DNA from: Escherichia coli
Lineage (GTDB): Bacteria > Pseudomonadota > Gammaproteobacteria > Enterobacterales > Enterobacteriaceae
Assembly: GCF_003334385.1 (NCBI RefSeq)
Contig: NZ_QOWN01000036.1
DNA: 43,104 bases
Reading direction: 5' to 3' (one strand)
The translations under genes and the position numbers were made by a program. Position 1 is the first letter of the stretch; each line of letters begins with the position of its first letter. Positions 72-39,905 of the stretch are shown one piece after another. Under the pieces are notes generated by a model. That model saw only the letters and a list, made by a program, of their open reading frames with translations. It searched no databases and had not been told where the DNA came from.

Positions 72-107
72 GATACTACGCTGGATACTACAACTAACTA
101 TGTTAGT

Positions 108-124
108 GGTGGGTCGTGCAGGAT
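108..124 (-). repeat. 17-bp copy of the 3' end of tRNA-Lys (tggtgggtcgtgcagga) in the lysT-valT spacer
   Basis: Exact match of 108-124 to 207-223 (the 3' end of the lysT gene), not followed by the rest of a tRNA. Confidence 0.6.
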
Positions 125-206
125 GACTCGACTTCGTCTCGCCCTTCGGGCCGTTGCTCATGCAACGTTATCCTTCACGTTTTACTACCGCTTCCACCTT
201 AGCGAT

Positions 207-282
207 TGGTGGGTCGTGCAGGATTCGAACCTGCGACCAATTGATTAAAAGTCAACTGCTCTACCAACTGAGCTAACGACCC
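207..282 (-). tRNA. lysT: tRNA-Lys (anticodon UUU)
   Basis: Reverse complement is GGGTCGTTAGCTCAGTTGGTAGAGCAGTTGACTTTTAATCAATTGGTCGCAGGTTCGAATCCTGCACGACCCACCA, 76 nt, anticodon loop CTTTTAA, CCA encoded. Confidence 0.93.
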
Positions 283-446: not shown

Positions 447-1238
447 TTACATCGCGTTCAGACGTTTTTGTGCCTGTTTAGCGCCATCAGTACCAGGGTA
501 TTTACTGATAACCTGCTGGTATACGGCTTTCGCTTTTGCGGTGTCACCTTTGTCCTGCATGATGACGCCGACTTTAAACATCGCATCTGCAGCCTTTGGT
601 GACTTCGGATAGTTTTTCACTACCGAAGCAAAATAGTACGCCGCATCATCTTTTTTACCCTTGTTGTAGTTTAACTGACCCAGCCAATAATTGGCGTTTG
701 GCAGGTAAGTTGAATCAGGGTAATTTTTGATGAAATTCTGAAATGCCACCATTGCGTCATCCTGGCGGGATTTATCCTGCACCAGCGCAATAGCTGCATT
801 GTAATCCGTGTTTGCATTACCGCTTTTCACCGGCGCGCCAGCATTCGCAGTACCAGCATCAGCTGTCGGCGTCGTTGATGCCGCCGCACCGCTTTGATCG
901 CCGCTGGTTGATTGCGCCGCTGCACCACCGCTGCTGAGGCTGTCGATCTGCAACAGGATCTGCTTTTGCCGCTCCACGACCTGATTCAGTTGATACTGAT
1001 TTTCCTGAATCTGACCACGCAGGGAATCAATATCGGATTGATTATCAGAAAGTTGTTGCTGGAGTTGGGTTAAAAGCTGGCTGTGAGCATTAGAAATACG
1101 CTCAAGTTGAGTGACGCGGTCTTCGACCGAGCCTGAGCCGACACTACTGATTGGTGCCTGAGCAAAAGCGGCCCAGGGGGCCGCTATACCAACCAGTAAC
1201 GACAGACTCAATAGTTGATGTCTGAAGTTACTGCTCAT
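447..1238 (-). CDS. cpoB: Cell-division coordinator CpoB (YbgF), periplasmic TPR protein
   Basis: 263-aa ORF with signal peptide (MSSNFRHQLLSLSLLVGIAAPWAAFA), coiled-coil Q-rich region and C-terminal TPR-like repeats; last gene of the tol-pal cluster. Confidence 0.95.
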   Translation of the reverse strand: MSSNFRHQLLSLSLLVGIAAPWAAFAQAPISSVGSGSVEDRVTQLERISNAHSQLLTQLQQQLSDNQSDIDSLRGQIQENQYQLNQVVERQKQILLQIDSLSSGGAAAQSTSGDQSGAAASTTPTADAGTANAGAPVKSGNANTDYNAAIALVQDKSRQDDAMVAFQNFIKNYPDSTYLPNANYWLGQLNYNKGKKDDAAYYFASVVKNYPKSPKAADAMFKVGVIMQDKGDTAKAKAVYQQVISKYPGTDGAKQAQKRLNAM

Positions 1239-1247
1239 GCAATTCTC

Positions 1248-1793
<546 letters not shown>

Positions 1794-6182: not shown

Positions 6183-6218
6183 AAAAATTTATGGGCCTGG
6201 AGCGGCCCATAATTTTTT
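6183..6218. terminator. Stem-loop with T/A runs on both sides between ybgE and ybgC; candidate terminator of the cyd operon
   Basis: tatgggcc-tggagc-ggcccata (6190-6211) is an 8-bp stem, with aaaaa before and tttttt after on the plus strand, so both strands see hairpin plus U-run. Confidence 0.45.
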
Positions 6219-6233
6219 AAAGAGAATTCTGAT

Positions 6234-6527
6234 TTAAAAGAAGAAGAAAATCAGCCCGACAATGAGAACAATATCGGCAAGCAATGGGCAAAAAATCCCT
6301 TGCCAAAGAACCTTCTGCGGACGAAAGCCCACGCCGTGAATCACACCAGCACAGACGGCCCACATCAGCAATAAACCATGCCAGATTTCCAGTTCACTGG
6401 TCTTCGCGGCAAAACGAGATGGGTCCCAAAACATACATCCTGCTAACAGAAGCGCCATCACGAAGGAAAGCGCCCGCAGGGGGCGCTTGTCCATTACCGC
6501 ATACAAAGTCGCGATAATCTTACTCAT
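6234..6527 (-). CDS. ybgE: Small inner-membrane protein YbgE (cyd-operon associated, function unknown)
   Basis: 97-aa hydrophobic ORF directly downstream of cydX, sharing one nucleotide with its stop (TGATG). Confidence 0.85.
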   Translation of the reverse strand: MSKIIATLYAVMDKRPLRALSFVMALLLAGCMFWDPSRFAAKTSELEIWHGLLLMWAVCAGVIHGVGFRPQKVLWQGIFCPLLADIVLIVGLIFFFF

Positions 6528-6640
6528 CAGATGTCTTCTTGACCGGCTTTGCCTGATTCGACGTGTTCAAGCGCCAGCGCGGTGATTACCCCAAACGAAC
6601 AGGCAAGAAGCGTTCCCAGAATCCATGCGAAATACCACAT
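6527..6640 (-). CDS. cydX: Cytochrome bd-I oxidase small subunit CydX (YbgT), 37 aa
   Basis: Manual translation of the minus strand gives MWYFAWILGTLLACSFGVITALALEHVESGKAGQEDI*; below the ORF-track length cut-off; sits between cydB and ybgE. Confidence 0.85.
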   Translation of the reverse strand: MWYFAWILGTLLACSFGVITALALEHVESGKAGQEDI

Positions 6641-6654
6641 TTTTAGCTCCTTAC

Positions 6655-7794
6655 TTAGTACAGAGAGTGGGTGTTACGTTCAATATCTTCTTTGGTGATA
6701 CGACCGAACATTTTCCAGTAACACCAGGCGGTGTAGAGCAGAATGATCGGTACCAGAACCACCGCAACCCAGGTCATGACGTTAAGCGTCAGCTGGCTGG
6801 AAGTTGCATCCCACATTGTCAGACTTGCGTTCATCATGGTGCTGGACGGCATCACAAACGGGAACATTGCGATACCGGCTGTCAGGATGATGCAGGCCAG
6901 CGTCAGGGAGGAGAACACAAACGCCCACGCGGCTTTATCCATACGTGCAGTCAGGATGGTCAGCAGCGGCAGAACCACACCCAGTGCCGGAATAGCCCAC
7001 AGAATTGGCGTGTTGTTGAAGTTAACCAGCCATGCGCCAGCTTCACGAACCACTTCTTTATTCAGTGGGTTAGAGGCTGCGTAATGGTCCATTGTCGATT
7101 TCACGACATAACCATCGATACCGTACATCACCCATACGCCAGCCAGTGCGAAACAGACCAGTGTCACCAGCGCAGCCACCTGAGCCGTTGCACGGGTACG
7201 CAGGTGCAGTTCGCCCACGGTACGCATTTGCAGATAGGTTGCGCCCTGAGTAATGATCATCCCTACGCTCACCACGCCTGCCAGCAGGCCGAACGGGTTA
7301 AGCAACTGGAAGAAGTTACCGGTGTAGTACAGACGCAGATATTCATCAACGTTGAACGGTACGCCCTGCAACAGGTTACCGAACGCTACACCAATTACCA
7401 GCGGCGGAACGAAGCTACCAATGAAGATGCCCCAGTCCCACATGTTACGCCAGCGGGTTTCTTCAATCTTGGAGCGGTAGTCAAAACCGACCGGACGGAA
7501 GAACAAAGACGCCAGCACGAGGATCATCGCCACATAGAAGCCGGAGAACGCAGCGGCATAGACCATCGGCCAGGCAGCAAAGAGTGCGCCGCCCGCGGTG
7601 ATCAGCCAAACCTGGTTACCGTCCCAGTGTGGTGCAATGGAGTTAATCATAATTCGACGCTCGGTGTCGTTACGACCGAGGAAACGGGTGAGCATGCCCA
7701 CCCCCATGTCGAAACCGTCAGTGACTGCAAAACCAATCAGCAGAACGCCAACCAGCAGCCACCAGATAAAACGCAATACTTCATAATCGATCAT
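6655..7794 (-). CDS. cydB: Cytochrome bd-I ubiquinol oxidase subunit II
   Basis: 379-aa polytopic membrane ORF recognised as CydB. Confidence 0.95.
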   Translation of the reverse strand: MIDYEVLRFIWWLLVGVLLIGFAVTDGFDMGVGMLTRFLGRNDTERRIMINSIAPHWDGNQVWLITAGGALFAAWPMVYAAAFSGFYVAMILVLASLFFRPVGFDYRSKIEETRWRNMWDWGIFIGSFVPPLVIGVAFGNLLQGVPFNVDEYLRLYYTGNFFQLLNPFGLLAGVVSVGMIITQGATYLQMRTVGELHLRTRATAQVAALVTLVCFALAGVWVMYGIDGYVVKSTMDHYAASNPLNKEVVREAGAWLVNFNNTPILWAIPALGVVLPLLTILTARMDKAAWAFVFSSLTLACIILTAGIAMFPFVMPSSTMMNASLTMWDATSSQLTLNVMTWVAVVLVPIILLYTAWCYWKMFGRITKEDIERNTHSLY

Positions 7795-7809: not shown

Positions 7810-9378
7810 TTAGCGTGCCGGCTGAGTAGTCGTGGAAGACTGCTCAAAGTGATAGCGACCGGTTTTCAGGCTGCTTGGGCCGAGGCGTGCAAACTTGAAC
7901 ATTAAGAACAATTCTGCCACCAGGAACAGGGTATACAGGCCGCAAATCAGCACCATTGAGAAGATGAGATCGCCTGCGGTCAGTGACGAGTTCGCCACAG
8001 CTGTCGGCAGCACTTCACCGATAGCCCACGGTTGGCGGCCATATTCAGCCACGAACCAGCCCGCTTCTACAGCAATCCACGGCAGCGGAATACCGTACAG
8101 CGCGGCGCGCAGAAGCCATTTTTTCTCGCCAATGCGGTTGCGGATGACACTCCAGAAAGAGAGCGCGATGATTGCCAGAAGCAGGAAGCCACACGCCACC
8201 ATGATACGGAACGCAAAGTACAGCGGCGCTACACGCGGGATGGAGTCTTTGGTTGCCTGTTGAATCTGCGCTTCAGTCGCATCAGCCACGTTTGGCGTAT
8301 AGCGTTTCAGCAGCAGACCGTAACCGAGGTCTTTCTTCATGCTATTGAACTGGTCACGAACCGCCTGGTCGGTAGAACCAGAACGCAGTTGTTCGAGCAG
8401 AGAGTACGCCTTCATCCCGTTACGAATGCGTTCTTCATGCTGCACCATCAGCTCTTTCAGGCCGATAACCGGGGTATCCACGGAACGCGTTGCAATGATG
8501 CCCAGTGCGTAAGGGATCTGAATCGCAAATTTGTTCGTCTCCTCTTCCTGATCAGGAATGCCGAACAGAGTAAAGGCAGCAGGCGCAGGTTGCGTTTCCC
8601 ACTCGGCTTCAATAGCAGCCAGTTTGGTTTTCTGCACGTCGCCCATTTCGTAGCCGGATTCATCACCCAGAACAATAACAGACAGAACAGCAGCCATACC
8701 GAAGCTGGCAGCGATAGCAAAGGAGCGTTTAGCGAAGGCGAAGTCACGACCTTTCAGCATATACCATGCGCTGATACCGAGGATGAACATCGCGCCAGTC
8801 ACATAACCAGACGCTACAGTGTGAACGAATTTCACCTGAGCAACCGGGTTAAGCACCAGCTCGGAGAAGCTCACCATCTCCATACGCATAGTTTCAAAGT
8901 TGAAATCGGACGCGATTGGGTTTTGCATCCAGCCGTTCGCAACCAGAATCCACAGTGCGGACAGGTTTGAACCGAGCGCCACCAGCCAGGTGACACACAT
9001 ATGCTGAACTTTACCCAGACGATCCCAACCGAAGAAGAACAGACCTACAAAGGTGGATTCGAGGAAGAAGGCCATCAGACCTTCGATTGCCAGCGGCGCA
9101 CCGAAGATATCCCCTACATAGTGGGAATAGTAAGACCAGTTAGTCCCGAACTGGAACTCCATGGTCAGACCGGTAGCCACACCCAGAGCGAAGTTGATAC
9201 CAAACAACTTGCCCCAGAACTTGGTCATATCTTTATAAATCTGTTTGCCGGAGAGGACGTAGACCGTTTCCATAATGGCCAGCAGGAACGCCATACCGAG
9301 CGTCAGTGGCACAAAAAGGAAGTGGTACATCGCGGTCAAGGCAAACTGTAAGCGCGACAGTTCGACTATATCTAACAT
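7810..9378 (-). CDS. cydA: Cytochrome bd-I ubiquinol oxidase subunit I
   Basis: 522 aa from [12 protein letters not shown]... (the track ORF has one extra leading Met codon); recognised as CydA. Confidence 0.95.
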
Positions 9379-9712
9379 CATGACTCCTTGCTCATCGCAT
9401 GAAGACTCCGAGAGTGAACCCCGTTAGAAAGGGTCACACGCATGCCCCAATAGAAATTTGTTTGAACACTTTCATCATACCATGTGAATGCACACAAAAA
9501 CGGCGTAAAGAAAGGTTGCAAACATGTTAATAAAAACTCAAATTGATCCCACGTATATATTACGCCGCAAAATCCTTACAATAAACAGGTTTTTGTTGAA
9601 GCAAATTTGCATTTTTCGACGGTGATCAATTTATAGCTAAATTACCGCCTTTCAGCCAATTTGATCGAGAACAATTTATCTCTTTTTGATGCCCATTTCC
9701 AAGACTTATACA

Positions 9713-9726: not shown

Positions 9727-10015
9727 TTCCTACAAATTATGTTAATCATGTTTCAATAAGGTAACTTTAGTGACATTTATGTTTAAAATGTGTGAGTTAT
9801 AAGGCTGAAATTAGTTTCGGTTGGCAATTAAAGATAAAAAGAGACGAAGCAAAAACAGCACGGTTGACCTTAATTCTTTTTTTGGTCACTGGCTAATACG
9901 ACGCAGAGTTTCAGGATTACTAATAAAGGCATAAATCCACCCCGCCAATATTAACATTTAGTTAACTTATAATTATATTATAATTAACTCACCCAGGGTT
10001 ATTATTTTGTTAAAA

Positions 10016-15683: not shown

Positions 15684-15686
15684 GCA

Positions 15687-15786
15687 CAAAAAAGGCCATC
15701 ATACGATGGCCAACCATGTCGAAACCGACAGCCCTTCGCCATTCCTGTAGAGGGAAGCGGCGAGGGCTATTTCTTATTACAGATAT
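15687..15786 (-). ncRNA. sdhX: Candidate 3'UTR-derived sRNA SdhX (RybD) downstream of sucD
   Basis: About 100 nt between the sucD stop and an intrinsic terminator (ggccatcgtatgatggcc followed by tttttt on the minus strand, 15687-15712). Assigned from memory of the K-12 annotation, not verified. Confidence 0.45.
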
Positions 15787-17905: not shown

Positions 17906-18076
17906 CCGTAGGCCTGATAAGACACGTTAAACGTCACATCAGGCATCGCTTGTCGGATGCGGCGCTAGCGCCTTATCCGACCTACATTGGTGGTCCCGTA
18001 GGCCTGATAAGACGCGTCAGCGTCGCATCAGGCTTCAATTGCCGGAGAAGGCGATAATGCCTTATCCGGTCTACAG
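17906..18076. repeat. REP/BIME cluster in the sucB-sucC spacer
   Basis: Multiple gtaggcctgataagacgcg... and cggatgcggcg... / ccttatccg palindromic units within a 274-bp intergenic gap. Confidence 0.6.
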
Positions 18077-22310: not shown

Positions 22311-22428
22311 CCTGATGCGCTGCGCTTATCAGGCCTACGGGTAATGACTTGTAGGCCGGATAAGGCGTTCACGCCGCATCCGGCACTGGTTGCCTGATGC
22401 GACGCTTGCGCGTCTTATCAGGCCTACG
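22311..22428. repeat. REP/BIME cluster in the sdhB-sucA spacer
   Basis: cctgatgcgctgcgcttatcaggcctacg..., ggccggataaggcgttcacgccgcatccggc... and gcctgatgcgacgcttgcgcgtcttatcaggcctacgg palindromic units. Confidence 0.6.
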
Positions 22429-25659: not shown

Positions 25660-26367
25660 GAATAACGCCCACATGCTGTTCTTATTATTCCCTGGGGACT
25701 ACGGGCACAGAGGTTAACTTTCTGTTACCTGGAGACGTCGGGATTTCCTTCCTCCGGTCTGCTTGCGGGTCAGACAGCGTCCTTTCTATAACTGCGCGTC
25801 ATGCAAAACACTGCTTCCAGATGCGAAAACGACACGTTACAACGCTGGGTGGCTCGGGATTGCAGGGTGTTCCGGAGACCTGGCGGCAGTATAGGCTGTT
25901 CACAAAATCATTACAATTAACCTACATATAGTTTGTCGGGTTTTATCCTGAACAGTGATCCAGGTCACGATAACAACATTTATTTAATTTTTAATCATCT
26001 AATTTGACAATCATTCAACAAAGTTGTTACAAACATTACCAGGAAAAGCATATAATGCGTAAAAGTTATGAAGTCGGTATTTCACCTAAGATTAACTTAT
26101 GTAACAGTGTGGAAGTATTGACCAATTCATTCGGGACAGTTATTAGTGGTAGACAAGTTTAATAATTCGGATTGCTAAGTACTTGATTCGCCATTTATTC
26201 GTCATCAATGGATCCTTTACCTGCAAGCGCCCAGAGCTCTGTACCCAGGTTTTCCCCTCTTTCACAGAGCGGCGAGCCAAATAAAAAACGGGTAAAGCCA
26301 GGTTGATGTGCGAAGGCAAATTTAAGTTCCGGCAGTCTTACGCAATAAGGCGCTAAGGAGACCTTAA
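25660..26367. promoter_or_regulatory. Divergent sdhC / gltA control region
   Basis: 708-bp AT-rich spacer between divergently oriented sdhC and gltA; known to carry promoters for both under ArcA/CRP/FNR control, and the sdhC leader is an sRNA target. Individual sites not mapped here. Confidence 0.6.
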
Positions 26368-39775: not shown

Positions 39776-39905
39776 GCCTGATGCGACGCTTGACGCGTCT
39801 TATCAGGCCTACGTATTTCCTGCAATTTATTGAATTTGCACAAATTTGTAGGCTGGATAAGGCGTTCACGCCGCATCCGGCATCTGGGCTCGATTGCCTG
39901 ACGCG
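39776..39905. repeat. REP/BIME (RIP-like) element in the convergent dtpD-phr spacer
   Basis: gcctgatgcgacgcttgacgcgtcttatcaggcctac and tgtaggctggataaggcgttcacgccgcatccggcat palindromes flanking ctgcaatttattgaatttgc. Confidence 0.6.

Follow-up and report, generated by a model that had tools for sequence, protein, structure and literature searches.

CydX, the small subunit X of cytochrome bd-I, is physically present in cryo-EM structures of the Escherichia coli oxidase, in which the solved subunits are CydA, CydB, CydX and CydH/YnhF (PMC8951039). Deletion phenotypes have further established that CydX is needed for oxidase activity (PMC6005532, PMC12648545). The gene ybgE has been described as a mark of the bd-I-type cydABX operon, other cydABX operons of Klebsiella aerogenes being without it (PMC11576283). 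cydX itself has been annotated, structurally resolved and genetically characterised for over a decade. Stop–start sites of the UGAUG or AUGA type are known to support termination–reinitiation, examples being the trpE-trpD and trpB-trpA pairs of E. coli.

Here we evaluate a cydB-cydX-ybgE locus in a 43,104-nucleotide stretch of E. coli DNA, hereafter referred to as the window. Taken as a whole, the locus is very probably best explained by the identity of the short gene as cydX, a coupled cydX-ybgE junction and an accessory role of YbgE. The individual parts of this explanation are of different strength, as set out below.

The cydX locus and its surroundings

The whole window corresponds to the reverse complement of approximately 737.7-780.8 kb of E. 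coli K-12 MG1655 at 99.97% identity. A blastn comparison against MG1655 737700-780900 returned a single alignment of 43,105 columns in reverse orientation with 12 differences, comprising 11 substitutions and one 1-bp deletion (window positions 1518, 3386, 4357, 13938, 14972, 17967, 23826, 25202, 27730, 27825, 42231 and 42235). These affect, among others, pal, tolA (twice), mngA, mngR, sdhA, sdhD and ybfD (twice), and the same whole-window alignment contains no substitution or deletion in cydB, cydX or ybgE. The sequence is either K-12-like and distinct from MG1655 itself, or bears sequence edits or errors.

The features of the locus, with the MG1655 annotation mapped to the window, are as follows.

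6655..7794, minus strand: cydB (b0734), cytochrome bd-I subunit II, a 379-aa ORF
6655-6657, minus strand: TAA stop codon of cydB
6641..6654, minus strand: 14-nt cydB-cydX spacer, GTAAGGAGCTAAAA, containing the cydX Shine-Dalgarno sequence
6647-6653, minus strand: cydX Shine-Dalgarno sequence UAAGGAG, anti-SD duplex -8.4 kcal/mol
6527..6640, minus strand: cydX (b4515, formerly ybgT), subunit X of bd-I, 37 codons plus TGA
6234..6527, minus strand: ybgE (b0735), 97 aa, predicted three-helix inner-membrane protein (PF09600/TIGR02112)

The reading frame at 6527..6640 (-) translates from its ATG to MWYFAWILGTLLACSFGVITALALEHVESGKAGQEDI (ORF listing, 20-aa minimum). This confirms the initial annotation in its coordinates and, letter for letter, in its peptide, and adds the strand that it had left out: the gene lies on the minus strand, and a plus-strand reading of 6527-6640 was rejected because its translation is broken by a stop. 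The placement of the gene between cydB and ybgE, also proposed initially, agrees with the ORF coordinates.

This 37-codon ORF corresponds to a known gene, cydX, which encodes the bd-I small subunit. Its product scores 70.7 bits against NCBIfam TIGR02106 (cut-off 31.6, E=9.1e-20) and is identical at 37/37 positions to chain X of PDB entry 6RKO (E=8.9e-22), which bears out the earlier assignment of the peptide to CydX; nine PDB entries of bd-I hold the identical CydX sequence (6RKO, 6RX4 and seven further). The peptide has a single hydrophobic helix, with a maximum Kyte-Doolittle hydropathy of 2.12 over 17 residues, and an N-terminal MWYFxW..G motif. A cydX-like MWYFxW(I/V)LG... peptide is conserved in 12 lineages (the window and 11 others). 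When the 1,860 candidate short-ORF starts of the window are ranked by anti-SD energy, cydX comes within the top ~0.5%; the same Shine-Dalgarno sequence and spacing are tabulated for it in PMC9841429. Ribosome occupancy had been named as a check on the gene, and here the literature provides the answer: cydX is classed as translated in a manual curation of E. coli Ribo-seq data and is picked up by three ORF-calling tools (PMC8921622).

The initial annotation also described cydX as missed by the ORF track. A 60-codon cut-off does hide the gene, but it is annotated in RefSeq E. coli records. In MG1655 it is listed as b4515, 'cytochrome bd-I accessory subunit CydX', at 774196-774309, and ybgE follows at 774309-774602, such that their overlap can be read straight from the annotation coordinates. 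A 901-bp query across the cydX locus matched 5,426/5,426 complete RefSeq E. coli genomes, and cydB, cydX and ybgE are all annotated beneath this match in every RefSeq E. coli record listed.

Start codons at the locus present two further observations. cydX begins with AUGUG, and a GTG located 2 bases downstream opens an out-of-frame 23-codon ORF, MVFRMDSGNASCLFVWGNHRAGA, at 6567..6638 (-); cydX has been included among AUGUG genes, with no start ambiguity predicted for it (PMC9841429). For cydA, the ATG at 9381 (-) gives the longest ORF (523 aa, MMLDIV...), and MG1655 uses the next ATG, at 9378, for a product of 522 aa.

The cydX-ybgE junction

The stop codon of cydX and the start codon of ybgE share a nucleotide, as had been noted initially and as is evident from the plus strand, where 6525-6529 reads CATCA. 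Two features are relevant to the expression of ybgE.

6525..6529, minus strand: TGATG junction, cydX TGA at 6529-6527 and ybgE ATG at 6527-6525, with a shared A at 6527
6602..6618, minus strand: sigma-54 motif TGGGAACGCTTCTTGCC, ChIP-seq site IS08 (PMC4591121), in sense orientation over cydX codons 8-13

To place the junction in a wider context, we used the genomic surroundings of eleven divergent YbgE relatives that are 23-39% identical to E. coli YbgE. Together with the window, cydX lies directly upstream of ybgE in 12/12 lineages, and in all twelve the spacing from the cydX stop to an in-frame ybgE start falls in the range from a gap of 1 nt to an overlap of 20 nt. The anti-SD duplex of ybgE is among the weakest of the 39 annotated starts in the window (-2.4 kcal/mol, as against -8.4 for cydX and a median of -6.0). 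The combination of a weak ybgE Shine-Dalgarno sequence and a conserved tight junction supports coupling by termination–reinitiation, and on these sequence features we consider it plausible that ybgE is translationally coupled to cydX. The predicted mRNA structure at the junction did not differ from shuffled controls (z=-0.01), and there is consequently no hint of an occluded ybgE start that upstream ribosomes would have to unwind.

We propose the following model for the locus. cydX is translated from its own strong Shine-Dalgarno sequence, 14 nt past the cydB stop, on the cydABX-ybgE mRNA. Its 37-residue, single-helix product packs on CydA near haem b558 and is required for stable bd-I assembly and activity, as established by structures and genetics. 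Ribosomes that end on cydX would most likely reinitiate at ybgE via the UGAUG overlap, and such reinitiation would tie the synthesis of YbgE to that of CydX, at a lower level.

Alternatively, ybgE could be expressed independently of cydX translation, either through de novo initiation at its own weak ribosome binding site or through transcription from a sigma-54 promoter internal to cydX, with the overlap reflecting compaction only. Bacterial operons commonly have stop and start codons that overlap by 1 or 4 nt, and this generality, together with the lack of occluding RNA structure detected at the junction, is compatible with such independence. A promoter is suggested by the sigma-54 ChIP-seq site, a GG-N10-GC motif in sense orientation upstream of ybgE that is the only exact match to TGGGAACGCTTCTTGCC within the window, and IS08 could in principle drive cydX-independent transcription of ybgE. 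However, the motif has a low score (6.85 in the table of PMC4591121), and its bases are constrained in any case by the conserved cydX codons for WILGxLLAC. Independent expression also has to contend with one of the weakest Shine-Dalgarno pairings of the window at ybgE, with a junction that stays tight in 12/12 lineages despite divergence of the sequences to ~25-35% identity, and with the joint rise of cydX and ybgE mRNA under microaerobiosis (log2 2.83 and 1.98, respectively; PMC8910356). We therefore regard this alternative as unlikely and favour coupling of ybgE to cydX. In the proteomics of the same microaerobiosis study, both YbgE and CydX were undetected (PMC8910356), so that the missing YbgE signal carries no weight.

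YbgE and its operon partner

YbgE is a full-length member of the families NF007881 ('cyd operon protein YbgE'; 185.2 against a cut-off of 116), TIGR02112 (141.8 against 89.55) and PF09600 (E=1.1e-33). An exhaustive representative search recovered YbgE relatives in just 75 clusters (50% identity) among 1.84 billion proteins, indicating a narrow family. In an alignment of 37 diverse members, G67 is near-invariant and R18, A25, P36, G65, F68, P70, W75, F79 and P81 are strongly conserved; these residues are mostly of the kind that serves packing or turns, not catalysis or ligand binding. His64 was considered as a haem ligand and rejected, since it is conserved in 67% of members and replaced by Tyr or Phe, making an obligatory role unlikely.

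In a confident AlphaFold2 model of YbgE (pLDDT 93.1, pTM 0.82), an amphipathic helix at the N-terminus is accompanied by three long helices, and the conserved loop contains a further, short helix. Across the family, Lys plus Arg is enriched in the N-terminal tail (2.55) and in loop 2 (1.97) as against loop 1 (0.91), from which we predict an N-in topology with loop 2 (G-x-G-F-x-P) in the cytoplasm and the C-terminus out. A comparison of YbgE with the PDB found no matching chain even at E<=10, and the search for an informative fold relative returned none.

The initial annotation held that YbgE has no defined role in the oxidase. This is consistent with its absence from bd-I structures and with its PF09600/TIGR02112/NF007881 family, which has no assigned function. 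YbgE does not appear as a stoichiometric subunit of purified bd-I: given that no PDB chain matches it and that solved bd-I consists of CydA, CydB, CydX and CydH/YnhF, we conclude that it is no core subunit. It also appears dispensable in the laboratory, since a kan cassette inserted between cydX and ybgE caused no growth or beta-mercaptoethanol phenotype (PMC6005532). Its constant position in the operon leads us to speculate that YbgE has a dispensable function specific to bd-I, as an accessory or assembly/stability factor. A more specific version, in which YbgE is a translationally coupled factor dedicated to gammaproteobacterial bd-I that assists its assembly or stabilisation in sub-stoichiometric amounts, is a possibility that we hold tentatively and with some doubt. 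If this were true, YbgE might use its conserved cytoplasmic G-x-G-F-x-P loop to dock transiently on CydX or CydA while membrane insertion or haem loading takes place, and would be lost on purification; it would then matter only under microaerobic, NO, sulfide or host conditions.

The end of the operon bears on the question of which system YbgE serves.

6189..6212, both strands: GC-rich, terminator-like hairpin with a 9 bp stem, 22 nt past the ybgE stop

The cydABX-ybgE transcription unit probably ends at this hairpin, which was identified by consensus match only. Downstream of it lies the ybgC-tolQRA-tolB-pal envelope system, to which YbgE might instead belong functionally, given that ybgC-tolQ-tolR follow ybgE both in the window and in five divergent lineages (L002, L005/L006, L007, L008 and L011). 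This assignment is very improbable. Two lineages (L003/L004 and L012) keep cydABX-ybgE without ybgC-tol and have unrelated convergent genes downstream. Moreover, ybgE abuts or overlaps cydX in every lineage, whereas the ybgE-ybgC gap spans 79-322 nt; that of the window measures 149 nt and contains the terminator-like hairpin. The persistence of cydABX-ybgE without ybgC-tol, together with the hairpin after ybgE, links YbgE to cyd and not to tol, in keeping with an accessory role in bd-I.

Proteins that join CydX and YbgE exist in the databases. Entries 131-135 aa in length combine the Pfam domains of CydX and YbgE (P0002-P0006, P0012 and P0018), and these arise through independent frameshifts or stop loss at differing positions in the cydX tail, running on into the ybgE frame. 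A Rosetta-stone interpretation was rejected: most of the proteins are singletons that come from assemblies of read-archive or metagenome data, and they probably represent errors or sporadic mutants. The joined proteins would be topologically compatible if CydX has the C-in orientation, which we take to be the case, and YbgE is N-in as predicted.

In two non-enterobacterial lineages, L003 (1359..1595) and L012 (1447..1644), the gene directly before cydA, on the same strand, encodes a small 'CydP' protein (PF28236; 65-78 aa). A CydP homologue was not found in the 846-nt mngB-cydA intergenic region of the window. The 'upstream hydrophobic small protein' of Allen et al. (2014) was set aside as a candidate because it is confined to operons without cydX.

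Short genes in the window and comparison with known systems

It had been suggested initially that other genes below 60 codons could be hidden in the window. Three annotated CDS of this size are present, namely cydX and two genes in the sdhC-gltA intergenic region.

26055..26162, plus strand: ybgU, 35 aa, annotated in MG1655
26146..26178, plus strand: ybgV, 10 aa, GTG start, annotated in MG1655
9870..9932, minus strand: MPLLVILKLCVVLASDQKKN, a 20-codon ATG ORF ~550 nt upstream of cydA, the best candidate from our rescan

ybgU and ybgV share 17 nt, which they read in different frames; both are intact, match MG1655 exactly and have modest Shine-Dalgarno pairing (-4.3 and -4.0 kcal/mol, respectively). 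Both have been validated through tagging and ribosome profiling (bioRxiv 10.1101/511675). Further short genes therefore do exist, as suspected, but these two were already annotated and none of the remaining candidates is credible as new.

The proposed rescan for short ORFs with Shine-Dalgarno sequences covered lengths of 10-60 codons across the window, 1,860 start-stop pairs in all, each scored for anti-SD pairing, and yielded no convincing new gene. Eight mostly intergenic candidates reached <= -5 kcal/mol, and most of them were rejected for having TTG starts or lying in REP or tRNA-flanking sequence. The best, at 9870..9932 (-), is preceded by the SD-like GGGGTGGA (-6.8 kcal/mol). Its region occurs in 3,176/5,426 E. 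coli genomes, being missing from 41%, and has no annotated feature in any E. coli record listed; on both grounds it was rejected as a conserved gene, and it is probably not a gene.

The 37/37 identity to a PDB chain, the TIGR02106 score and the strong Shine-Dalgarno sequence set cydX far apart from chance ORFs of this kind. The reading that its 37-codon frame is a chance opening, with cydB and ybgE the only real genes, has short length as its sole support and is dismissed outright in view of the family score, the PDB identity, the Ribo-seq curation and the conservation of the peptide in 12 lineages.

Several non-coding elements in the window were recorded alongside the short ORFs. Matches at the Rfam gathering threshold comprise the CpoB/ybgF thermometer at 1209..1347 (-), two REP-derived naRNA4 elements at 22354..22424 (+) and 17911..17982 (-) in the sdhB-sucA and sucB-sucC spacers, the ES036 sRNA at 39805..39847 (-) and RtT at 107..275 (-) beside tRNA genes. 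The K-12-annotated sRNA SdhX (sdhX) lies at 15686..15786 (-), and Rfam did not report it at the gathering threshold.

Outside E. coli, gene callers missed cydX in 2/11 related loci examined, and under-annotation of this small gene persists there. At L006 4391..4500, cydX is uncalled in the NCBI assembly GCA_000222065.2, and identical DNA in the ENA assembly (L005) has a 32-aa ORF. On an ENA contig (L014 1..193) cydX is likewise uncalled, and a spurious gene on the opposite strand was called there instead.

As a finding, cydX in the window is correct but already known, being an annotated and structurally resolved gene, and the case is mainly one of quality control, in that a 60-codon ORF cut-off conceals real genes. 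The present analysis adds the strand, support for coupling (Shine-Dalgarno strengths and 12/12 conservation), a confident, if uninformative, model of YbgE and the observation that YbgE tracks cydX over tol. The remaining biology is that of YbgE, which is narrowly distributed, well conserved, always operonic with cydX and absent from bd-I structures.

Compared with described systems, the window gene shows no difference from CydX of E. coli bd-I (YbgT; TIGR02106 / PF08173 YbgT_YccB), sharing its sequence, its position 14 nt after cydB, its Shine-Dalgarno sequence and its AUGUG start. AppX/CbdX (NF011333), the small subunit of bd-II, is a paralogous single-helix peptide with an MWYxxW N-terminal motif, likewise encoded after subunit II. 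The window CydX resembles it remotely (PDB 7OSE_C, E=0.015; NF011333 21.7 bits against a cut-off of 57). AppX/CbdX differs in that the app operon lies elsewhere in the genome and in that cydABX operons besides bd-I are without ybgE (PMC11576283). Like the coupled trp pairs, cydX-ybgE combines a one-base UGAUG overlap, a weak downstream Shine-Dalgarno sequence and conserved juxtaposition; unlike in those pairs, the dependence of ybgE on cydX translation is a prediction only. CydH/CydY (YnhF), the fourth bd-I subunit, is another small membrane protein associated with bd-I, and it was long overlooked. However, CydH/CydY is encoded elsewhere, consists of a single helix and is present in the structures, whereas YbgE is encoded in the operon and absent from them. 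With regard to its own family, the window YbgE is indistinguishable from other PF09600/TIGR02112/NF007881 members and occupies the defining place of that family directly after cydX.
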